A stretch of 64,000 bases of DNA from Candidatus Acheromyda pituitae (GTDB lineage: Bacteria > Chlamydiota > Chlamydiia > Chlamydiales > Rhabdochlamydiaceae). This document shows positions 18,260-28,202 of this stretch, one piece after another. The notes under the pieces are model-generated. The model was not told the origin of the DNA and did no database searches. It saw only the letters and a program-made list of their open reading frames with translations. The translations under genes were made by a program, and so were the position numbers. Positions within the stretch are counted from its first letter, which is position 1. The number at the start of each line of letters is the position of its first letter. The stretch covers positions 14,158 through 78,157 of the forward strand of contig JAHCAX010000008.1 in the NCBI GenBank assembly GCA_019634675.1, given 5' to 3'.

Positions 18260-19357
18260 TTATATCTTTGAACAGCGATTGAGAAGAACGGCATCGGCTA
18301 GGACGATGGCCATCATGGCCTCAACGATCGGCACTGCGCGGATGGTGACGCATGGGTCATGGCGCGAGCCTTCCGGGATCTTGAACTCTTTTTCTTCGCC
18401 TTGGGTGCTGACCGTTTTTTGTGGCTTCATGATGCTGGAGGTTGGTTTAAAGGGGACTCGGAGGATCAAGGGCATGCCTGTGCTGATGCCGCCGAGGGTA
18501 CCGCCTGCAAGGTTGCTGGCCTTGGTGATCTTCCCTTCATCATTGAGGATGAACTGGTCGTTGTGTTCCGAACCTTTCATGCGGGCGGCTGCAAAGCCCG
18601 ATCCGATCTCGAACCCCTTGGTGGCTGGGATGGAAAGCATTGCCTTGGCTAAATTGGCCTCGAGCTTTTCATAGACGGGGTCGCCTAGGCCGGCTGGAAG
18701 GTTAAAACCGACAGACTCGATCACACCTCCCAAGGAATCTCCCTCTTCTTTTACCTTCTCGATAGCGCGGATGATCTTTTCCGTTGCAGCCTCGTCGGGA
18801 CAAAAAATAGGGCTTTTCCGGGTTGCCGCTTGCAGTGCTGCCGGATCATTGAATGCAGGCTCTGGCATGCTGATCCCGCCGACTTCCCGAATAAAGGCCA
18901 CGACCTGGATCCCATAGACGGCCAGCAGCTTTTTAGCGACAGCGCCGGCTGCCACGCGGCAAGCGGTCTCGCGGGCAGAAGAGCGCCCGCCGCCGCGGTA
19001 ATCGAAGATCCCATACTTTTCAAGATAGGTGAAGTTGGCATGGCCAGGGCGGAGCAGGTCTTTGATCGGTTCATACTTGGATGAGTCGGCATCTTTGTTA
19101 AAAATGATGATGCTGATCGGAGCTCCTGTCGTCTTTCCTTCAAAAACTCCAGAGCAGATCTCTGCGGTGTCTTTTTCTCCACGTGGGGTAACATAGGCTG
19201 TTCTGCCAGGCTGGCGGAAGGCTAGCTCTGTGTTGATCTCTTCATCGGAGATAGAGAGTCCTGCAGGACATCCATCGATGACGACTCCGATTGCTTTGCC
19301 ATGGGATTCTCCCCAGGTGGTGATTCGGAAGAGGTTGCCAAAGTGATTGCTTGCCAT
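18260..19357 (-). CDS. aroC: chorismate synthase
   Basis: TTWGESHGKAIG N-terminus, GGGRSSARET and RHDPC motifs. Confidence 0.95.
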   Translation of the reverse strand: MASNHFGNLFRITTWGESHGKAIGVVIDGCPAGLSISDEEINTELAFRQPGRTAYVTPRGEKDTAEICSGVFEGKTTGAPISIIIFNKDADSSKYEPIKDLLRPGHANFTYLEKYGIFDYRGGGRSSARETACRVAAGAVAKKLLAVYGIQVVAFIREVGGISMPEPAFNDPAALQAATRKSPIFCPDEAATEKIIRAIEKVKEEGDSLGGVIESVGFNLPAGLGDPVYEKLEANLAKAMLSIPATKGFEIGSGFAAARMKGSEHNDQFILNDEGKITKASNLAGGTLGGISTGMPLILRVPFKPTSSIMKPQKTVSTQGEEKEFKIPEGSRHDPCVTIRAVPIVEAMMAIVLADAVLLNRCSKI

Positions 19358-19368
19358 ATGCAGGTTCC

Positions 19369-19890
19369 TTATTCTTTAATAGCTGCGGCCAATTCTTCGA
19401 GAACGGCCTCATCCGTTTTATTGCTCACATCGATCCGGACAGCACGGACCCTTTCGTAGATCGTTTTCCGCTTTTCGTACATCCTGTCAAAAGATCCTTC
19501 CGGATCGATTGGGTCTAAGTATGCGGGGAGCGGGGAGCTTAGGACCCTTTTCTTTAATGCCTCTTTATCTAATGTCAAATAGATGAGCCGGCCCATTTTT
19601 TCCAGGATTTCCACATTCGAACGGTGCAAGATCATGCCGCCGCCAACTGCGATGATAGAGGATTGGACATTCTGGATAGCGGCGAGGACTTGGGTTTCCA
19701 GAGCGCGGAATCCTTCTTCGCCTAATTTCATGTAGATCTCGCGGTATCCGATCCGCTCTTTTTTCAATAGGGCATATTCTTCTTCGATCAATCGGTCGGT
19801 ATCGATAAAAGGGCGGGACAGGTAGGCGCTCAGCCTTTTGCCAAAGTAGGTCTTGCCGCAAGATTTAAAGCCGAAAAGGATCGTGTTCAC
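19369..19890 (-). CDS. aroK: shikimate kinase
   Basis: Walker A GFKSCGKT. Start set at GTG 19890 (GTGA overlap with the aroA stop). The listed ATG at 19962 lies inside aroA. Confidence 0.85.
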   Translation of the reverse strand: MNTILFGFKSCGKTYFGKRLSAYLSRPFIDTDRLIEEEYALLKKERIGYREIYMKLGEEGFRALETQVLAAIQNVQSSIIAVGGGMILHRSNVEILEKMGRLIYLTLDKEALKKRVLSSPLPAYLDPIDPEGSFDRMYEKRKTIYERVRAVRIDVSNKTDEAVLEELAAAIKE

Positions 19891-21173
19891 TGTCTGACCT
19901 CGATCGATGCGCCGAGGTTGGACAGATCGCGCGCAAATGTTGGAAATGTTTTGGCAACGCACTCGACTCCGTCAATCACGCTTTCTCCTTTTGCTCCAAG
20001 GGCTGCGATCGAAAGGGACATCGCTATCCGATGGTCGGCGTAGGACTTAAGCTGGGCTCCATGAAGAGAGGAGCGTGAGACGATCAGTCCGTCAGGAGTC
20101 TCTTCGATAGAAGCTCCCATTTTTTTCAGTTCCGTGCAGATGCTATGGATCCGGTCCGATTCTTTTTTTCGGGCAACTGCGGCATTGACGATCCGTGTCG
20201 TCCCTTCCGTGTAGCAGCCGATCACGGCTAAAATGGTGATCGCATCGATATAGTCGTTGATGTCGAGCTCCATCCCTTTTAGTTTGGAGCCTTTCTTGAT
20301 CTTGAGCTGCTTCTTTTCAGCGTCAATTTCGATGTTTGCGCCCATAGCAATGAGCACTTCGATCAATTTTTTATCTCCTTGGCAATCATCCATGTCGATG
20401 TTGCCGAGGGTCAGTTCAGAATCGGTGACGATCGCTGCCGCAATAGGGAAAGCAGCTGAGCTGAAATCGCCAGGGACGCTGATATCAAATCCATCGTAGC
20501 TGCCATTTCCATGCACGGTGTAGTGGGTGTAATTGTCGTTGTCGACGCGTAAGCCCAACCGTTTCATCCAGCTTAAGGTCAGGTCGATCCAAGGTTTTTC
20601 ACCGGGATTATCGACGAAGATCTCGCTTTTTCCATTAAGAAAGCTCGTTGCGATCAGGATCCCTGAAACAGGTTGGGAATCTTCTCCTGGGAGGGTGACT
20701 CTTCCTGGCTTCATCGGACCTTTGATCAAAATGGGGGCATAGCCGTCCTGACGCATCGAATCGGCCATTGCACCCAGTTGCGATAGGGCGTTAAGCAGTG
20801 GTTTAACGGGGCGGTTATGCCGGATCGAATGGTCGCCGGTAATGACTGTGTAAGTGGGAGAAAGTCCTGCAAGGGCCCCGATAAACCGGAGGACTTGTCC
20901 CGAATTGCCAGAATCGATCACGTTTTCTGTGCTTTGAAGCTTGCCTCCAGTTCCATTAATGATGATTTCCTCATTGTTCATTTCGGCAGAAGAGCCAAAC
21001 ATGCGGACAGCATCGACCATGGCAAAAGTGTCAGGGGAGTTCAAGTAGTTCCGGACATAGGTCTTTCCTTTTCCCATCAGTCCAAAAAGAATGGCCCTCA
21101 GCGTATGCGATTTGGAAGGAGGAATAACGATCGTTCCTTTAAGAGAAGAAGGGGAGACTTTGAACTGGGTCAT
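19887..21173 (-). CDS. aroA: 3-phosphoshikimate 1-carboxyvinyltransferase (EPSP synthase)
   Basis: PPSKSHTLR, GNSGQVLRF, PGDFSSAAF and DHRIAMS motifs. Confidence 0.95.
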   Translation of the reverse strand: MTQFKVSPSSLKGTIVIPPSKSHTLRAILFGLMGKGKTYVRNYLNSPDTFAMVDAVRMFGSSAEMNNEEIIINGTGGKLQSTENVIDSGNSGQVLRFIGALAGLSPTYTVITGDHSIRHNRPVKPLLNALSQLGAMADSMRQDGYAPILIKGPMKPGRVTLPGEDSQPVSGILIATSFLNGKSEIFVDNPGEKPWIDLTLSWMKRLGLRVDNDNYTHYTVHGNGSYDGFDISVPGDFSSAAFPIAAAIVTDSELTLGNIDMDDCQGDKKLIEVLIAMGANIEIDAEKKQLKIKKGSKLKGMELDINDYIDAITILAVIGCYTEGTTRIVNAAVARKKESDRIHSICTELKKMGASIEETPDGLIVSRSSLHGAQLKSYADHRIAMSLSIAALGAKGESVIDGVECVAKTFPTFARDLSNLGASIEVRQ

Positions 21174-22309
21174 CGTGCACCTCGGAATTGGGAAAGGGTC
21201 GAAATAATCACTTCTTGCAGGATCGCATCATCGATCGTCGTGCAGTAGGCGCCGTTAAAAGCCGCTGGAGAGCCGATCGCCTCTAATAGGACAAAGCGGG
21301 GTTTTGCATTTTTAGCTTTTTTATCGAGTATCATCGCTCCGTACAGGTTTTCAAAGGTGAGCTTATCAGATATGGCTAGCGGGAACTCAAAGAGCTTGAG
21401 GATGTGCTCGATCTGCTCGCAAACAGCCTTATCGAGGAGGCCGAGCCGATGGCTTAAATTAGCTTCAGCGAGCATCCCGACGGCAACAGCTTCGCCATGG
21501 GCAATCCGGTAGTTTTCCAGGAGCTCGATCGCATGGGCGACCGTATGGCCGAAGTTCAAGATTCTCCGGTACCCGTTTTCTTGGAAGTCCGCTTCGACGA
21601 CATCTTTTTTAATTAAAAAGCTATCATAGATCACTTCCTGCAAAAATTCCGGGTCCTTTTTTATCCATTGGGAGTGGCCATCGATCAGTTTTTGAAACAA
21701 TTTAGGGGAGCGGATCAGTCCATGCTTGATGATCTCGGCAAGTCCGTTCCTCCACTCTCGATCAGGAAGCGTTGATAATGTCATTGTGTCGATCTGAATG
21801 TGCTCTGCAGGGTAGTAGGTCCCGATCAGATTTTTTCCGAAAGGGGTGTTGACCCCTGTTTTTCCTCCAATGACGGCATCGACCATGCAAAGAAGCGTTG
21901 TCGGAATGCAGAGAAGGGACACCCCTCTGCAGAAGGTGGAAGCGACATAGCCTGCCAGGTCTGTCGCAACGCCTCCGCCGATGGCGATGATCGCCGTGTC
22001 TTTGCCGCATTGATGGGCAAACAGCTCATCTTCCAATCGTTCCTTCATCTCGCGCGTCTTTGATTCTTCTCCAGCGGGAAAGGTCAGTTTTGTAACAGCA
22101 ACACCCTGTTTCTTTAAGAATGCCGCCCATTTGTCGACAAGCAGCGATTGGATATGCGAGTCTGCGATGGTCACAAGCTTTTTGTTGAGGCTGCTTAAGG
22201 TTTCAACCCAAGCTTGGCTGTATAAGATTTCATGGCCGAAATGGACCTTGGTCGTAATGGGAGATGGGGTCAGCTGGAGGGTAAGGTCGCGTTTGATCAT
22301 TGTGTGCAA
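21170..22309 (-). CDS. aroB: 3-dehydroquinate synthase
   Basis: IAIGGGVATDLAGYVA and FGHTVAHAIE motifs. 4-nt overlap with the aroA start. Confidence 0.93.
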   Translation of the reverse strand: MHTMIKRDLTLQLTPSPITTKVHFGHEILYSQAWVETLSSLNKKLVTIADSHIQSLLVDKWAAFLKKQGVAVTKLTFPAGEESKTREMKERLEDELFAHQCGKDTAIIAIGGGVATDLAGYVASTFCRGVSLLCIPTTLLCMVDAVIGGKTGVNTPFGKNLIGTYYPAEHIQIDTMTLSTLPDREWRNGLAEIIKHGLIRSPKLFQKLIDGHSQWIKKDPEFLQEVIYDSFLIKKDVVEADFQENGYRRILNFGHTVAHAIELLENYRIAHGEAVAVGMLAEANLSHRLGLLDKAVCEQIEHILKLFEFPLAISDKLTFENLYGAMILDKKAKNAKPRFVLLEAIGSPAAFNGAYCTTIDDAILQEVIISTLSQFRGAR

Positions 22310-23454
22310 AGCCGTTTTAATGCGTTAAGTCCTCGTTCGATATGGTCTAGGGATTCGGTGAATGCAAAGCGGACATATCCTTCCATTCCAAATGCGCTTC
22401 CAGGCACGGCAGCGATGTTGCCTTCTTTCAAGATCTTTTCGCAAAATTCAAGCGAAGAGATCTTTTCTTTTGTAAAAACGGTCAAAGGGATAAATGCATA
22501 GAGGGCGGATGAGGGCTTGGGAAGTTCGCAGGAAAATAGACGATTCAATGTATCCATAAAACAATCCCGTTTCTCTTGCATTGCATTTCTCATCATTGAG
22601 CTGACATCACTGGCATGCTTGATCGCGCTCAAGGCTGCCCATTGGCTTAAACTTGCAGTTCCTGTTGTCGTCTGGCCTTGCAAGGAGGCCATCGCGGCAA
22701 TCAGCTGCTGCGGTCCTAGGGCGAACCCGACGCGCAGTCCTGTCATTCCAAAATTTTTGGAACAGCTTTGGATGATCACAACGCGATTTTGCCATTTGGG
22801 CAAAGAGCCGCATGACACAAACTTTTCTTGATCATAGACGATCTCGCTATATACTTCATCAGAGATCACCGTCCAATCTTTAGCTTCCGCCAATTCTAAA
22901 ATGCTGATCAGCTCGTCCCGTGTGTAGATGGCGCCGGTCGGATTGTTGGGCTGGTTCAAAATCAAAACCTTAGTTTTCGAGGTGCTCATCTTTTTCAATG
23001 CATCCGCCGTTACTTTCCATCCACTGGATTCCTCGCTGGGCACGGTGACCGGAGTCCCGTTGAAGTGGGAGACGATCGTGGGATAGGAAGTCCAGTAGGG
23101 AGCTGGGATAAGCACTTCATCGCCGGGTGAAAGGAGCAGGTCCAAAGCTGCATAAAGGGCGAATTTGCCTCCGCAGGTGACAAGGATCTGGTTTTCATTG
23201 TATTGGCATCCATAGCTTGAGTTCTGCCAGTTTGCAACAGCCGTTCTGAGGGCGGGAAGTCCCATGAGAGGCGGATAGGAGCAGTCTTGGGTTTGCAATG
23301 CTTTGGAAATTCCCTCTGCAATATCCGGATGCATCGGCAAATTGGGATCGCCGGCTGAAAAATTAAACACTTCTTCCCCGTTTGCTTTTTTTTGCTGGGC
23401 AAGCGTATTGATCGCAACGGTTGCGGAAGGGGCGATTTTATTGTGGATTTCCAT
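22297..23454 (-). CDS. class I PLP-dependent (aspartate/aromatic) aminotransferase
   Basis: NPNNPTG and SCSKNFGMTGLRVG (PLP lysine) motifs. Embedded in the aro operon, so it probably makes Phe/Tyr from their keto acids. Confidence 0.85.
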   Translation of the reverse strand: MEIHNKIAPSATVAINTLAQQKKANGEEVFNFSAGDPNLPMHPDIAEGISKALQTQDCSYPPLMGLPALRTAVANWQNSSYGCQYNENQILVTCGGKFALYAALDLLLSPGDEVLIPAPYWTSYPTIVSHFNGTPVTVPSEESSGWKVTADALKKMSTSKTKVLILNQPNNPTGAIYTRDELISILELAEAKDWTVISDEVYSEIVYDQEKFVSCGSLPKWQNRVVIIQSCSKNFGMTGLRVGFALGPQQLIAAMASLQGQTTTGTASLSQWAALSAIKHASDVSSMMRNAMQEKRDCFMDTLNRLFSCELPKPSSALYAFIPLTVFTKEKISSLEFCEKILKEGNIAAVPGSAFGMEGYVRFAFTESLDHIERGLNALKRLCTQ

Positions 23455-24226
23455 AAGGTGCCTTTTGCATAAATTCTACCCATTTGTTCCAATATTGATG
23501 CAGAATTTTACGGTTATTTTCTGTTAGTTCATTCGCCAGTTGAGGCGGTGTCTTTGCCAGGCGCGTCATCGATTGGAAACCTGTCCCGGCGATCTGCAAA
23601 GCTTCCTCGTCTTCCTGCTTAACAAAGGCCATTAAGGCCTGAGAGATCAACAAGGGCAGATGGGAGATCAATGCGACCTGTTCGTCATGTTTTTCCGCAC
23701 TGAGGCGGATGGGATTGGCTCCAAGGCCGCCGATCCAACGTTCGATTGTTTGCAGCGTCTCTTCTTGATTCTTCCTGTGGGGAGTTATCAGCCAAACTCC
23801 GCCTTCAAAAAGGACAGCGGAGCTGGAGCTGTATCCCGATGTTTCCTTTCCCGCCATCGGATGGGTCGAGACAAATTCGATCTGATCGCTTGAGAGCTTT
23901 TCCAAAACTGGCACAATCTGCCCTTTGACGCTGCTGATGTCGAGTACGGTCAAAGGATGATCGATAGGTAGGCTGGCAAGCATCTTTGCTATCGAAGAAA
24001 GCTCAAAGAGGGGAGCAGCGATGACAACAAGCTCTGCCCAATGGGCAAGCTCTTCGATCGATGCAAAATGACGGTCGATCACCTTTTCATTCTGGGCCAG
24101 TTCAAGATGGCTGCTGCTTTTGTCGCAGGCAGCAATTTCAACTTTCCCATCTTTAGCTTTAATGGTCTTGGCGATCGAGCCGCCGATGAGTCCGAGGCCA
24201 ATGATCCCTATGCGTTTAAAACACAT
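23438..24226 (-). CDS. tyrA: prephenate (or arogenate) dehydrogenase
   Basis: IGIIGLGLIGGSIAK Rossmann motif and THPMAG motif. Confidence 0.85.
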   Translation of the reverse strand: MCFKRIGIIGLGLIGGSIAKTIKAKDGKVEIAACDKSSSHLELAQNEKVIDRHFASIEELAHWAELVVIAAPLFELSSIAKMLASLPIDHPLTVLDISSVKGQIVPVLEKLSSDQIEFVSTHPMAGKETSGYSSSSAVLFEGGVWLITPHRKNQEETLQTIERWIGGLGANPIRLSAEKHDEQVALISHLPLLISQALMAFVKQEDEEALQIAGTGFQSMTRLAKTPPQLANELTENNRKILHQYWNKWVEFMQKAPYGNPQ

Positions 24227-25053
24227 GACCTGTCCTTGTTGTAGATCCCCAGCATCTTACAGCTTTGAGTGATTTCTTGGAGGTTTTTCAATGCCTGTTC
24301 GAGCAAATGCATTTGAGTTGGTCCGAACTGCAGGTCGATATAAAACAGGTATTCGAAAGGCTTGCCAATGATCGGCCGAGATTCAATTTTAGTCAAATTG
24401 ATCCCGTGGCTTGCAACATCTTGCAGCACTTGAGCCAATGCACCCGGTTCATGCTTCAGCGTTAGCAACACTGTGCATTTATCTCCTTGAAATACATTGC
24501 GGCCTTTTTTTGCTGCAAACAGGAAGCGAGTGTAGTTCTGAGGGTTGTCGGCGATCCCCTTTTTTAGAACGCAAAGGGAATAAAGCTGAGCTGTCTCGCA
24601 ACTTGCGATCGCTGCTTCTTCGAGGTCTTGTCTTTGCGCCAGCATCGCAGCAGCTCCTGCTGTGTCGTAGTGGACGATCGGCTCTATCCACGGATGGGCG
24701 CGGAAAAACGCGCGGCACTGGTCGAGCGCTTTAGGATGGGAATAAACCCGTTTGATCCTATTCATAGCACCCTCTGAATCGTCGATCCCCAAAAGACAAT
24801 GTTCGATCTTCAGCAATTTCTCGCCGACGATCTCGATGTCGAACTGGTGGAGAAGATCGTAATTTTCCCATATGGAACCGATCAACGTGTTCTCAATCGG
24901 AATGACAGCGATGTCAGCCTGGCCTTCTTCCAAAGCTTCATAAAGGGAAAGAAATGTTTCTTTCCCCGTGAGCTGGACATCGGACCCGAACGCAGCAAGG
25001 GCTGCCAATTCGCTGAAAGAGCCTTGGGCCCCTTGATAGACGATCCGTTTCAT
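24208..25053 (-). CDS. pheA: prephenate dehydratase with C-terminal ACT domain
   Basis: YQGAQGSFSE N-terminus, TRFL and LTKIESRP motifs. Confidence 0.9.
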   Translation of the reverse strand: MKRIVYQGAQGSFSELAALAAFGSDVQLTGKETFLSLYEALEEGQADIAVIPIENTLIGSIWENYDLLHQFDIEIVGEKLLKIEHCLLGIDDSEGAMNRIKRVYSHPKALDQCRAFFRAHPWIEPIVHYDTAGAAAMLAQRQDLEEAAIASCETAQLYSLCVLKKGIADNPQNYTRFLFAAKKGRNVFQGDKCTVLLTLKHEPGALAQVLQDVASHGINLTKIESRPIIGKPFEYLFYIDLQFGPTQMHLLEQALKNLQEITQSCKMLGIYNKDRSCVLNA

Positions 25054-25337
25054 CCGATTTTTTCCTTCTCGTTCATGATCATTTTCATTTCCATTTTGGA
25101 ATAGTTCACAAATACCGTGAACATCTCTTCAATAATCGCAGGGCTAAGATTGTTCTGTTTTGCCAGCTCCCGGAGCATCTGCTTTTGGAGCTTTTCCCTT
25201 TCCCAATCATCGACAGGCAGAGTTTCCTGCCGCTTGACCTTAGCGATCTCTTTGGTCACCACAAGCCGTTTTCCTAACAAAGCGATGATCTCTGCATTGA
25301 TCGCATCGATCTCATTGCGTAAATTGTTCAAGTTCAT
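25050..25337 (-). CDS. AroQ-class chorismate mutase
   Basis: MNLNNLRNEIDAINAEIIALLGKRLVVTKEIAKVK. Start set at ATG 25337 (ATGA overlap with the upstream DAHPS stop). The listed start at 25427 lies inside that gene. Confidence 0.85.
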   Translation of the reverse strand: MNLNNLRNEIDAINAEIIALLGKRLVVTKEIAKVKRQETLPVDDWEREKLQKQMLRELAKQNNLSPAIIEEMFTVFVNYSKMEMKMIMNEKEKIG

Positions 25338-26347
25338 AGGTGCCTCCCGATCGCTTGGGCGATCGTATTTAGTTCTGTTGATAGTTGGGCAAGCTCGTGC
25401 GGAAGCAGGGCTTGCTTGCCATCGCATTTTGCTTCAGCCGGCAAATGGTGCACTTCGACGAGCAGACCGTCAGCGCCTAATGCGACCGATGCTTTGGAAA
25501 GGGCCGGGATAATGTCTTTGCGTCCAGCTGCATGGCTTGGATCGACGATGATCGGAAGGTGCGTCATCCCTTTGGCAACAGCGACGCTGCTCAAATCCAG
25601 GGTGCTGCGCGTCGAGTTCTCGAATGTACGGATCCCCCGTTCGCACAAGATCACCTGTTCATTGCCGTGCGCCATGATGTATTCAGCGCTCATGAGCCAC
25701 TCTTCGACAGTTGCCGACATGCCCCTTTTCAGGATGACAGGCTTGCCGCATTGGCCGACCTCTTTAAGAAGATTGAAGTTCTGCATGTTCCGAGCGCCGA
25801 TCCTGACGATATCGACGTGTTCAGCAACAACGCCTACATCGCGGACGTCCATCACTTCCGTCTCGATGACAAGACCGTGTTCCAACTGGGCCCTTTTATG
25901 GATCTTCAGTCCCTCGATGCCCATCCCTTGGAAACTGTAAGGAGAGGTCCTTGGTTTGAACGCCGATCCCCGCAGCACAGAGACTTTGGCATTTTTGAGC
26001 TGCCGGGCGATTGTCAGAAGCTGTTCCTCGCTTTCTATGGCGCAAGGGCCTGCCATCATAATGATCTGGTCGCCGCCGATCTCGATATCTTTGATCTTGA
26101 TGGTCGAGCGGTTAGGTTTGAATGCCTTGCTGGCCATTTTGAACGGCGTTGCGATCGGCATGACCGCTTCTACGCATTCCATGGCTTGAATCTCTCCGAG
26201 CAAGTCAGCCGCCGGCTTTTGTTCCAGGCCGAGGATTGTGGCATCGCCCGCTTGGGAAATACAGTGGTGCATCCCATGCTGGCTCAATTTTTGGACCAGA
26301 AGGGCAAGAGCATCGCTTCTGATCTGCTGTTTTAGCTTAATTAACAT
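25334..26347 (-). CDS. type I-beta DAHP synthase with N-terminal regulatory-type domain; first gene of the aro/phe/tyr operon
   Basis: GPCAIESEEQ, GSAFKPRTSPYSFQGMG, LKRG and VDPSH motifs. Paralog of 11434..12453. Confidence 0.9.
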   Translation of the reverse strand: MLIKLKQQIRSDALALLVQKLSQHGMHHCISQAGDATILGLEQKPAADLLGEIQAMECVEAVMPIATPFKMASKAFKPNRSTIKIKDIEIGGDQIIMMAGPCAIESEEQLLTIARQLKNAKVSVLRGSAFKPRTSPYSFQGMGIEGLKIHKRAQLEHGLVIETEVMDVRDVGVVAEHVDIVRIGARNMQNFNLLKEVGQCGKPVILKRGMSATVEEWLMSAEYIMAHGNEQVILCERGIRTFENSTRSTLDLSSVAVAKGMTHLPIIVDPSHAAGRKDIIPALSKASVALGADGLLVEVHHLPAEAKCDGKQALLPHELAQLSTELNTIAQAIGRHL

Positions 26348-26537
26348 TGTAAATCCTTTATAATCAACATCTTATAGTTTGAATTAGACGCAAAGCGTCT
26401 CTTGCGTATCGCTCTTTGGTCTCAAGCCATGAAGAGCTAAGATTTAACTTTTAGATCATGCAAAAGAACCTTTCTTAGCCTTTTGCGGGCCTTAAGTTAG
26501 AAAAACGGGTGGTAAGGGGTTAAATATGTATTGGCGC

Positions 26538-26648
26538 TTAGGCGCCAAAATAGAAATAGAAAGAAACGTAAAAACGGCAAGATGCACAAGAAGAGCGAGC
26601 TTCTTGCGACGCAGGGGCGAGAGCCTGTAGGGTCTGCGTAGTTTTCAT
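26538..26648 (-). CDS. candidate leader peptide (36 aa) MKTTQTLQALAPASQEARSSCASCRFYVSFYFYFGA
   Basis: I translated it by hand from the - strand; it is below the ORF-track size cutoff. It has 4 Phe and 3 Tyr among 9 consecutive codons near the C-terminus. It lies between a near-consensus promoter and the DAHPS start codon, and its stop codon sits in the loop of the hairpin TTGGCGC-CTAA-GCGCCAA. Confidence 0.55.
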   Translation of the reverse strand: MKTTQTLQALAPASQEARSSCASCRFYVSFYFYFGA

Positions 26649-26661
26649 GGTAAAAAACACT

Positions 26662-26691
26662 TTGCCTTTCTTATTTGTACTACATTATAAT
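26662..26691 (+). promoter_or_regulatory. candidate aroDE promoter, -10 overlapping the divergent -10
   Basis: TTGCCT (26662-26667), 18-nt spacer, TATAAT (26686-26691). AAGAGG Shine-Dalgarno sequence at 26710-26715 and ATG at 26727. Confidence 0.45.
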
Positions 26692-26712
26692 CTAATTTTA
26701 TTCGATAGTCAA
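26684..26712 (-). promoter_or_regulatory. promoter of the aro/phe/tyr operon leader
   Basis: On the - strand: TTGACT (26712-26707), 17-nt spacer, TATAAT (26689-26684). About 35 nt upstream of the leader ATG. Confidence 0.6.
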
Positions 26713-26726
26713 GAGGCTTCATTCTT

Positions 26727-28202
26727 ATGCTCTTCTGCATCGCGACAGGGCCCACCCTTTTAGAAGCGAAAAACACTGTCAATCAGGCGCTTAACAAGGC
26801 GCAAGGGATCGAGCTGCGGTTCGATCTTTTTCAGACGATTGATCTTAAAGGGATTAAAGAACTGGTGGATGCGCTGGGGCATAGCCGCTCCATCAAGCTC
26901 CTATTCACTTTGCGCCCTGTGCGCCAGGGAGGGGAGTACAAAGGATCGGAAGAGTCGAGGCTTTCCCTTTTAAAGGAGCTATGCGCCCTGGGGCCTGACT
27001 ATGTCGATCTCGAATGCGACGTCCCATTGCAGCACTGGAAAGAGTTCGCAGCGCAATTCCCCAAGATCCAGTTCATCTGCTCCTTTCATGATTTCGTCCA
27101 TGCTCCAAAGGACCTCGACAAGCTGCTATCAAACATGAAAAATCCTTATGCGAGCATCTATAAGATCGCTGTGATGGCCCATGCATCGCATGATGCGTTG
27201 CATATGATGGAGTTTGTCAGGAGGAACAAAGAGACATGTCAGCTGATCGGGATTGCGATGGGGGAGGCTGGAGTTATTTCTCGAGTCCTCGGACCTGTTG
27301 CAGGAAATTACTTTGACTACGCTTCTGTCTTTCAAACAACCGCTCCTGGGCAGCTCAGCATCGAACAAATGGAAAAACCCTACCGCCACTCCCAACTCAA
27401 CACTAAGACGGCGCTCTATGGACTGATCGGGTATCCAACTGAAAAAAGTCTGGGGCACAAGATCCATAATGCTGTCTTTGAGGCCCATCGCGCCAACGCT
27501 GTTTATGTGAAGATGCCTGTTCGTCCTGAAGAACTGTCCTCTTTCATTGAGTCGGCCAAAGCCCTTCCCTTTAAAGGGCTCAGTGTCACGATGCCTCTTA
27601 AAGAAGAGGTCCTCCGATCGCTTGATTCTTTGAGCCTTTCTGCTCAGGCCATTGGAGCTGTGAATACGATCGTTGTCGAAAATGGCAAATGGATAGGACA
27701 TAATACAGATGGGATCGGAGCTCTCAACGCAGTCGAAGCAAAAATCCCTGTCAAAGACAAGCAGGTCCTCATCATTGGCGCAGGAGGCGCTGCCAAAGCG
27801 ATCATCTATGAGGCTCTTCAACGAGGAGCGCATGTTACCGTCTTAAACCGTACTCCGTCAAAAGCTAAAGCGCTGGCCAGCCTCTATCATTGCGAGGGGG
27901 GCGGGTTTGAACTTTTTCCTAAAGTCCTTAAAAAAGGGTACGATATCCTGATCAATACGATACCAGAAGGGGAGCTGATCGATGAAGAATGGATCCTTCC
28001 CAACAGTGTTGCCATGGATATTGTTTATATTCCCAAAAATACTCCGTTTTTGCTAAAAGCTTCCCGGAAAAACTGCAGTCTTGTTTTCGGGTATGAGATG
28101 TTCATCGGCCAGGCCATTGAACAGCAGCTCATTTGGTTTCCTGAAAATAAAGGCAGTATGCTGAGGCAAATCATCGAGCCGATTGTCCTCGCAGAATTTT
28201 AG
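26727..28202 (+). CDS. aroDE: bifunctional 3-dehydroquinate dehydratase (type I) / shikimate 5-dehydrogenase fusion
   Basis: The N-terminal half has a type I DHQase-like IYKIAVMA (Schiff-base Lys context). The C-terminal half has the SVTMPLK, NTDGIG and GAGGAAKA shikimate dehydrogenase motifs. Confidence 0.9.
   Translation: MLFCIATGPTLLEAKNTVNQALNKAQGIELRFDLFQTIDLKGIKELVDALGHSRSIKLLFTLRPVRQGGEYKGSEESRLSLLKELCALGPDYVDLECDVPLQHWKEFAAQFPKIQFICSFHDFVHAPKDLDKLLSNMKNPYASIYKIAVMAHASHDALHMMEFVRRNKETCQLIGIAMGEAGVISRVLGPVAGNYFDYASVFQTTAPGQLSIEQMEKPYRHSQLNTKTALYGLIGYPTEKSLGHKIHNAVFEAHRANAVYVKMPVRPEELSSFIESAKALPFKGLSVTMPLKEEVLRSLDSLSLSAQAIGAVNTIVVENGKWIGHNTDGIGALNAVEAKIPVKDKQVLIIGAGGAAKAIIYEALQRGAHVTVLNRTPSKAKALASLYHCEGGGFELFPKVLKKGYDILINTIPEGELIDEEWILPNSVAMDIVYIPKNTPFLLKASRKNCSLVFGYEMFIGQAIEQQLIWFPENKGSMLRQIIEPIVLAEF

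Follow-up and report, generated by a model that had tools for sequence, protein, structure and literature searches.

Upstream of an operon for phenylalanine and tyrosine biosynthesis in Candidatus Acheromyda pituitae, within the 64,000-nt stretch of DNA analysed here (the window), lies an unannotated leader open reading frame (ORF) of 36 codons plus TAA, which ends in a run of Phe and Tyr codons leading directly into a hairpin, P2, that spans the stop codon. The same ORF, aromatic run and hairpin stand upstream of the orthologous operon in 20/20 loci from three phyla. On comparative and thermodynamic evidence, we consider it probable that this conserved element, which we call the aro leader, is a ribosome-stalling sensor that reports the charging of tRNA-Phe and tRNA-Tyr. 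Indeed, a design that recurs in at least 20 loci of three phyla is very probably a built-in sensor, with the operon on when either Phe or Tyr is short.

The features of the window on which the argument draws are the following.

26684-26712, - strand: sigma-70-type promoter of the leader transcript, TTGACT-17-TATAAT, 11/12 consensus matches
26660-26672, - strand: purine box of the 5' untranslated region (5'-UTR), AAGAAAGGCAAAG, kept as AAGGCAA in the chlamydial clade
26538-26648, - strand: leader ORF, product MKTTQTLQALAPASQEARSSCASCRFYVSFYFYFGA, with an open in-frame equivalent in 20/20 loci
26586-26607, - strand: hairpin P1 inside the ORF, GCAAGAAG-CUCGCU-CUUCUUGU, from the RNAalifold consensus of 7 relatives
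26575-26581, - strand: CUUGCCG, candidate 3' strand of a helix P0
26547-26573, - strand: run of aromatic codons, F Y V S F Y F Y F, which forms a U-rich pyrimidine tract and is the proposed sensing element
26531-26548, - strand: hairpin P2, UUGGCGC-CUAA-GCGCCAA, 92% of cells paired in 19 sequences
26507-26530, - strand: UACAUAUUUAACCCCUUACCACCC, a stretch of C, U and A without G on the 3' side of P2; GUUUUU comes next, at 26506-26501
26348-26506, - strand: untranslated spacer with species-specific hairpins, of which only the first ~50 nt align with relatives
26354-26358, - strand: Shine-Dalgarno (SD) sequence AAGGA of the DAHP synthase (DAHPS) gene, predicted 0.57 unpaired
18260-26347, - strand: operon for DAHPS, chorismate mutase (CM), prephenate dehydratase with ACT domain (PDT-ACT), prephenate dehydrogenase (PDH), an aminotransferase (AT), 3-dehydroquinate synthase (DHQS), EPSP synthase (EPSPS), shikimate kinase (SK) and chorismate synthase (Pfam)

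Conservation of the leader ORF and its codons

Direct reading of the - strand bears out what the first-pass annotation had described, namely a near-consensus promoter followed by ATG 26648 and an ORF that closes with TAA at 26540-26538 and carries Phe or Tyr at seven of nine codons (26573-26547). The peptide of the window ends in RFYVSFYFYFGA and contains no Trp codon. The transcript predicted from this promoter would carry the leader ORF at its 5' end, and the promoter is conserved: the relatives have a TTGACA-17-TATAAT-like promoter at the equivalent position. The annotation's further claim, an operon for Phe, Tyr and chorismate about 190 nt downstream, was likewise upheld by Pfam matches, the spacer between leader and DAHPS measuring 190 nt with the DAHPS start codon at 26347-26345.

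Conservation of the mini-ORF in relatives had been set in advance as the test on which the candidate could fall, and it was found in 20/20 loci. These comprise 12 further chlamydial-type loci with DAHPS identities from 98% to 59%, including the complete Simkania negevensis genome; three additional chlamydial-type loci from a metagenome pattern scan; and five loci with 60-65% G+C, whose first gene is a chorismate mutase-prephenate dehydratase-DAHPS triple fusion and whose closest named relatives are Vicinamibacteria (Acidobacteriota) and Acidimicrobiia (Actinobacteriota). Across these three phyla the mini-ORF and its F/Y run are kept from 98% down to ~52% DAHPS identity. The patchy spread of a near-identical core over three phyla may reflect horizontal transfer or strong convergence.

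What is conserved is a short segment. The N-terminal parts of the leader peptides (for example MHPQEQDHTYDLSNQDSKSWSSFYFYSSYFFYFWR, MKNQEENRQILPLRRQASQALLSGSFYYFYFGA, MGAKSIPSCAAGYFFYFGA and MTTSPTSTTDAVSRRFFGFVYFGA, each followed by the stop) are unrelated, and in every case the aromatic cluster shares its frame with an ATG that closely follows a TTGACA/TATAAT-type promoter. The nucleotide core UAUUUUGGCGC-N3-6-GCGCC (YUAUUUUGGCGC-N3-6-GCGCC) is nearly invariant. In locus L001 one extra U shifts the frame, so that the peptide ends in FWR rather than FGA, with hairpin and stop-in-loop kept; together with the lack of conservation in the rest of the peptide, this implies that the constraint acts on codons and RNA, not on the protein. 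Codon choice is equally particular. Over the 20 loci, Tyr is encoded by UAU at 47/57 positions in the leaders (82%) against 19/131 (15%) in the adjacent gene, and Phe by UUU at 49/84 (58%) against 50/195 (26%), a bias towards U-ending codons that persists in the 60-65% G+C genomes. The non-aromatic fillers of the tract are mostly Ser (UCU).

The loci were gathered via the DAHPS protein, by exact-protein look-ups, and then via the motif. A contig scan with DAHPS was swamped by other phyla, 2/80 loci being chlamydial, and a leader-peptide profile search matched only three called proteins, ORFs of this kind being seldom annotated. Scanning metagenome DNA for the pattern returned mostly chance matches in ordinary genes such as that of RNase III, the real loci being L114, L120, L137, L146, L156 and L187. 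Since a loose F/Y mini-ORF scan is uninformative in AT-rich DNA, a run-plus-hairpin detector was used instead. A covariance model of the core has a single match in the 64-kb window and none in 78 DAHPS loci from Omnitrophota, Planctomycetota, Thermoanaerobaculia, Firmicutes and others. No Rfam leader family was matched at E <= 10 in the window or at E <= 1 in 7 relatives. A match to RefA1, an Enterococcus small RNA, at 26338-26582 on the + strand (25.9 bits, the gathering score being 94; E = 0.008) was dismissed as a chance match in AT-rich sequence.

In Simkania negevensis (FR872582, L084:1335-1466) the leader is annotated as a 43-aa 'unknown protein'. Its true start is probably an internal ATG giving 33 codons, because the annotated start falls only 3 nt after the -10 box. 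In this genome an Aminotran_4 gene stands between the leader and DAHPS, and tyrA is not part of the operon but is encoded on the opposite strand.

Geometry of the stop-spanning hairpin

The three codons that precede P2 are aromatic in 20/20 loci, mostly F-Y-F. The 5' arm of P2 (TTGGCGC, 26548-26542) starts within the last Phe codon and is read as F34-G35-A36, the 3' arm is GCGCCAA (26537-26531), and the stop codon sits in the loop, exactly as first described for the window. It does so in 14/20 loci; in the other six, which belong to one chlamydial subclade, it lies 6-33 nt past the hairpin (at ~13 nt in three of the six). Translation would end, then, within the P2 loop or at most 33 nt past P2.

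A ribosome encloses ~12 nt of mRNA 3' of the first A-site base. Because of this enclosure, a ribosome whose A site is at any one of the final three aromatic codons would keep the 5' arm of P2 partly or wholly single-stranded, and the codons from which it would do so are exactly those that are aromatic in 20/20 loci. This geometry is the strongest argument for a sensor. We propose that, when Phe or Tyr is scarce, the ribosome would stall on the U-rich aromatic tract and hold both the tract and the 5' arm of P2 single-stranded, so that the OFF conformation is blocked; when both amino acids are plentiful it would reach the stop codon and leave, the tract and P2 would refold and the operon would be shut down. 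Dual sensing of Phe and Tyr fits an operon that opens with a common-pathway enzyme and encodes both branches.

P2 varies little. Compensatory exchanges occur in L083 (GGCU/AGCC) and L211 (GGCGU/ACGCC), the stem is extended in L114 and L209, and the loop measures 3-6 nt across loci. Near invariance with hardly any covariation is also what would be expected of a protein-binding palindrome, and it could be argued that there is no sensor at all, TTGGCGC-N4-GCGCCAA serving a dimeric regulator as its DNA operator, or the ORF encoding a functional small aromatic peptide. We regard this as extremely unlikely: the half-site spacing varies between 3 and 6 nt, the palindrome lies ~130 nt downstream of the promoter, and the same site is present in three phyla, which are unlikely to share a regulator; as for the peptide, it is unconserved outside the aromatic codons and tolerates a C-terminal frame shift.

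Some points do weigh against the sensor. P2 is backed by conservation and not by covariation, the sequence being too invariant for a covariation test to be informative. The whole-leader fold is barely more stable than that of shuffled sequences (z = -1.6). The leader AUG has no SD at normal spacing, an AAGG lying ~17 nt upstream, and the positive signals for initiation are solely a conserved U-rich stretch and the AUG-AAA context. Finally, the F:Y ratio of the leader is weakly correlated with the pheA/tyrA content of the operon; the relation is suggestive for the fusion-gene loci and L082, and contradicted by L187.

Other structures of the leader

The first-pass annotation had listed several dyads in the leader region. 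All of them are present in the DNA, but only CAAGAAG/CTTCTTG (P1) and P2 recur in the consensus fold, most of the others being species-specific. P1 is the dyad GCAAGAAG/CTTCTTGT (26607-26600 / 26593-26586), and 5/7 of its pairs retain pairing via two-sided changes in at least one sequence among the 7 relatives. The further dyads include ACGCAG/CTGCGT (26639-26634 / 26614-26609) and GCTCTT/AAGAGC, and near the DAHPS start the alternative hairpins ACGCAA/TTGCGT (26407-26402 / 26393-26388) and AGACGC/GCGTCT (26400-26395 / 26391-26386), the first of which has a counterpart, UCGCAA/UUGCGA, in one relative, L085. P1 with the U-rich aromatic tract scored as terminator-like in L086:2273-2289 and L082:2329-2344; the pair could make the polymerase pause and so keep it in step with the ribosome.

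The purine box can pair, according to the folding models, with the CUUGCCG(U)n that opens the aromatic tract to form helix P0, with energies of -9 to -19 kcal/mol in most loci; P0 is absent from the RNAalifold consensus fold. In a 7-sequence alignment the AAGGCA of the box is invariant, and its distance of ~17 nt from the leader AUG is beyond that of a normal SD.

P2 is followed by a segment poor in G. All 18 loci tested have a G-free run of 10-42 nt after P2 (24 nt in the window), and the first 40 nt hold ~2 G (~5%) against 19-33% G in the whole loci; the chance of such a run in the GC-rich loci is 1e-5 to 1e-6. Aromatic tract, P2 and G-free run together form a 78-nt stretch with a C/G ratio of 2-6 across loci and 3.0 in the window. 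Ranked by C-minus-G, this stretch falls within the top ~1% for most loci and within the top 0.84% for the window.

Beyond it the spacers, 65-368 nt long across loci, diverge past ~50 nt after P2. The spacer of the window contains a hairpin, CUUAAGGCC/GGCUAAG, at 26496-26474. Small hairpins of this kind, with an A-rich loop and placed after the G-free tract and a short U run, have equivalents in L082, L084, L085, L086, L210 and L211 (for example GCC-CGCAAAA-GGC, CCUC-GAAAA-GAGG, CUGC-AAAAGA-GCGG, CUGC-AAAAAA-GCAG and CCGC-AAAAGA-GUGG), and at the sequence level their variants look like compensatory changes. In L209 (354-722) the 368-nt spacer contains very long near-perfect inverted repeats with a predicted fold of ~-200 kcal/mol, which look like a repeat element inserted between sensor and gene. 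If regulation has survived this insertion, direct pairing between the codon tract and the SD is not required in that organism.

Predicted pairing of the codon tract with the Shine-Dalgarno region in relatives

In about 12/20 relatives the codon tract is complementary to the SD region of the first gene, which, by modelling and by analogy, points to translational attenuation in these organisms. The OFF state in most relatives would be a duplex of the aromatic tract with the first-gene SD region, and Rho or RNase polarity would probably spread the effect down the operon.

L087 has 18-20 contiguous pairs (-19.7 kcal/mol), L137 reaches -17.7 kcal/mol, L088 offers a perfect 11-mer, CUAUUCCUUUU/AAAAGGAAUAG (-17.1 kcal/mol), and L212 of the Acidobacteriota forms 12 pairs (-14.1 kcal/mol). 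In L087, L088 and L137 the cognate pairing outranked those with all 17 non-cognate start regions, and a comparison with 120 control start regions put it in the best 0.8%. Seven to 12 contiguous pairs between tract and SD were found in L001, L083, L086, L187, L146 and L156, the number being 9-12 in L083, L086, L187 and L146, and in nine loci the aromatic tract is the best SD partner in the whole leader. When a ribosome stalled on the last aromatic codons was modelled, the predicted accessibility of the SD rose from 0.17 to 0.75 in L088, from 0.33 to 0.73 in L187, from 0.05 to 0.24 in L137, from 0.23 to 0.43 in L087 and from 0.22 to 0.39 in L086.

The duplex model would account for several features of the tract. 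U-rich codons would be chosen because U pairs with both A and G, and the linker would be G-free because it then offers no competing purines. The model also explains the Ser (UCU) fillers, and it requires no coupling of transcription and translation.

Possible output of the leader in the window

In the window this duplex is absent. The pairing reaches -3.9 kcal/mol, the worst of 18 loci and rank 17/17 against non-cognate start regions, and the DAHPS SD, already predicted to be largely open, is not opened further by a modelled stalled ribosome. Neither minimum free energy (MFE) folding nor constrained folding of the window leader gave any stall-dependent change at the SD. As the first-pass annotation had remarked by eye, there is no canonical hairpin-plus-U-tract terminator: our scan of the - strand of the window leader confirmed this. 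The search for alternative terminator and antiterminator pairs that it had suggested recovered none, the consensus being P1 and P2 alone.

Since the duplex is missing, the SD is predicted open and no intrinsic terminator is found, and since a C>G stretch that includes the universal G-free tract is combined with a 190-nt untranslated spacer, we tentatively put forward premature, probably Rho-dependent transcription termination in this spacer as our best guess at the output of the window copy. Once the ribosome has gone, the codon tract, P2 and the G-free tract, which together make up a G-poor, C>G region, would serve as a loading site for Rho, as in tnaC, and a ribosome parked on the tract and P2 would relieve termination. 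Rho-dependent polarity is documented in Chlamydia trachomatis. This part of the proposal has its own difficulties. A stalled ribosome leaves the G-free tract itself uncovered, and this tract may equally be read as a non-competing linker for the tract:SD duplex. Furthermore, the G-free part of the rut-like (Rho utilization) feature is short in the window (24 nt), and selection for a C-rich rut half-site would favour UAC over UAU, the reverse of the preference observed.

A weak intrinsic terminator is an alternative. P2 with its AU-rich tail could terminate by itself, a stalled ribosome occluding the 5' arm directly, so that two states suffice without an antiterminator. P2 and its tail indeed scored as terminator-like, at a borderline level, in L085, L086 and L082 (0-0.2 matches in shuffled sequences), U6-7 runs lie 3-6 nt from the stem in L001, L082 and L137, and the invariant F-Y-F core coincides exactly with the codons from which the ribosome reaches the 5' arm. 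In the window, however, the tail reads UACAUAUUUAAC, below the threshold of the scan, and the tails of the acidobacterial and actinobacterial copies are rich in C and lack a U tract. Moreover, in replete cells a ribosome at the in-hairpin stop codon would also block P2, and one stalled at an early codon would leave P2 free, which would give regulation of the wrong sign. We therefore hold this mechanism to be unlikely.

A translational relay in the window also deserves consideration. Here the purine box CUAAGAAAGG (26478-26469) would be the partner of the aromatic tract, and their pairing would decide which pyrimidine segment further downstream (UUCUUUUG, 26467-26460) covers the DAHPS SD. The best leader partner of this SD is AAGGUUCUUUUGCAUGAUCU (-9.5 kcal/mol), the adjacent AGAAAGG is complementary by eye to UUCUUUCU of the aromatic tract, and a similar geometry is possible in Simkania, between GGUUCUUUUU and AAAGAGGAACC (-13.7 kcal/mol). 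However, the SD is predicted to be mostly unpaired and insensitive to a modelled stall. The AUGAUC of the proposed anti-SD is ACAACC in the 98%-identical L002, with no compensating change, and the helices are short, AU-rich and within chance for purine and pyrimidine tracts in the controls. The relay thus seems quite improbable. A simpler anti-SD, the CCUUAC that follows P2, was also tried; it is plausible in L085 and in the acidobacterial loci (CUACCUC:GAGGUAG), and was rejected for the window as weak and non-specific.

It is doubtful, though conceivable, that the conserved module (UAU UUU GGC GCN stop, GCGCC, G-free tract) is a mobile, self-contained Phe/Tyr-sensing cassette, spread horizontally among Chlamydiota, Acidobacteriota and Actinobacteriota, whose mechanism is neither classical attenuation nor simple masking of the SD. 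A ribosome stalled on F-Y-F might, for example, melt a hairpin connecting the two halves of a bipartite Rho-loading site, or the stop-codon hairpin might modulate termination or recycling of the leader ribosome. The codon tract:SD duplex would then be a lineage-specific add-on.

Comparison with known leaders

The first-pass annotation had likened the region to the enterobacterial pheL/trpL/hisL attenuators. The aro leader does share with this class, including E. coli pheL-pheA (Rfam Phe_leader RF01859), a leader peptide encoded close to the promoter and rich in the amino acid that the pathway makes, a stop codon near the regulatory codons and a hairpin that begins at these codons. The stronger statement, that the architecture is the same, did not survive: we found no 2:3 antiterminator, no 3:4 terminator and no Rfam match. 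The codons in the window are mixed Phe and Tyr and, unlike that of pheL, the operon encodes the entire common pathway along with the Phe and Tyr branches.

In the trpL 1:2 pause hairpin the stop codon lies in the loop and the 5' arm follows the regulatory codons. P2 occupies the same position with respect to its stop codon, and the alternative hairpins near 26407-26386, one of which recurs in L085 with a U-rich tail, might be taken as part of a pheL-type attenuator whose 1:2, 2:3 and 3:4 structures have escaped recognition. The sequence around P2 speaks against it. The 10-42 nt after P2 are G-free, so that the GCGCC arm has no alternative partner; antiterminator partners of either arm of P2, sought upstream and downstream, were only 4-6-bp GC matches that we judged to be due to chance. 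The window leader has no hairpin with U tract, no structure is conserved besides P1 and P2, no Rfam leader family matches, and the spacers vary from 65 to 368 nt and align poorly past their first ~50 nt. A classical attenuator is thus very unlikely, and it is because the terminator and antiterminator tests failed that we set the aro leader apart from this class.

Leaders of the tnaC and speFL type sense a free metabolite through the nascent peptide, not through hungry codons. The window resembles tnaC-tnaA and speFL in that its leader ORF precedes a long C>G spacer that is not translated, and we propose for it that a ribosome detained at the 3' end of the leader would keep Rho off its loading site.

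Mixed Phe and Tyr codons had been thought unusual, but there is a precedent in Corynebacterium glutamicum, where the aroR leader carries a Phe-Tyr-Phe motif upstream of the DAHPS gene aroF and expression rises on ribosome stalling (Neshat et al. 2014, as summarised in PMC11802643 and PMC7356990). The aroR leader is described as responding to Phe only. By that description, aroR and the aro leader have in common a short leader ORF with Phe-Tyr-Phe directly upstream of a DAHP synthase operon, and it is of interest that an Acidimicrobiia-type locus, hence of the Actinobacteriota, carries the aro-leader module. In Acholeplasma, uORFC-13-1 upstream of aroF is likewise an upstream ORF with its own promoter before a DAHP synthase gene and a U-rich Phe run beside a stem; it is described as having an adjacent intrinsic terminator and as restricted to Acholeplasma, and neither Tyr codons nor a stop-in-loop hairpin are described for it (PMC8632094). 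Our comparison with it follows that description.

Placement of the regulatory codons at the 3' end of the ORF, as in the window, also characterizes the mycobacterial leaderless poly-Cys small ORF (sORF) Ms5788A, whose 3'-end Cys tract was shown experimentally to pair with the SD, giving translational control and polar effects downstream (bioRxiv 10.1101/834739), and the actinobacterial LEU element, for which pairing of a Leu-codon run with the SD is predicted (PMC1262725). Both sense other amino acids and lack a conserved GC hairpin spanning the stop codon. Their tract:SD pairing has a match in about 12/20 aro-leader loci and not in the window copy, which we set apart from this class because the defining pairing fails there, though most relatives have it.

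The aro leader is therefore of a known kind, aromatic leader-peptide sensing, and what appears new is a cross-phylum module with a single stop-spanning hairpin and lineage-dependent expression platforms. In the searchable literature we found no description of this module and no report of such a leader in Chlamydiae, where only trpL of Chlamydia is discussed; trpL of C. trachomatis, the sole chlamydial leader candidate, is regarded as doubtful. Cis-acting sensing of amino acids by leader peptides has been worked out almost wholly in Proteobacteria, Firmicutes and Actinobacteria, and a deeply conserved leader can now be placed in environmental chlamydiae that have kept the synthesis of Phe and Tyr. 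The culturable Simkania negevensis is among the carriers, so the leader is directly testable, and it gives a handle on the coupling of transcription, translation and Rho in Chlamydiota. The loci form a natural series in which one sensor would drive different outputs, SD masking where spacers are short and something else where, as in the window, they are long. As an RNA and upstream-ORF family absent from Rfam, the aro leader could join annotation pipelines.

The operon and its surroundings

The operon of the window has nine genes, of which the first encodes a type I-beta DAHP synthase with a ferredoxin-like N-domain (Pfam); this protein is 100% identical to one from a metagenome-assembled genome (MAG) labelled 'Parachlamydiales bacterium'. 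Consecutive ORFs overlap by 4-94 nt as listed (DAHPS/CM, CM/PDT, PDT/PDH, PDH/AT, AT/DHQS, DHQS/EPSPS), which suggests translational coupling along the operon. The longest overlap, which involves CM (25334-25427), probably results from a false upstream start, because the Pfam match of CM begins at residue 36.

In the five GC-rich loci the leader is followed by one ORF of ~690 aa (L146:967-3051 on the - strand, L120, L156, L212:1501-3570 and L214:1501-3534), in which the DAHPS part is without the ferredoxin-like N-domain. The triple-fusion protein has several thousand relatives in a database search.

On the + strand the window has a divergent gene, an aroD-aroE fusion (Pfam) starting at 26727, and a promoter-like site for it, TTGCCT-18-TATAAT (26662-26691, 10/12 matches). 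This site overlaps the leader promoter (26684-26712, - strand), the two -10 hexamers sharing 4 bp within ATTATAAT, so that the two promoters may be mutually exclusive. Its -35 hexamer is the reverse complement of the conserved AGGCAA box of the leader 5'-UTR, and the conservation of this box may thus have two causes.

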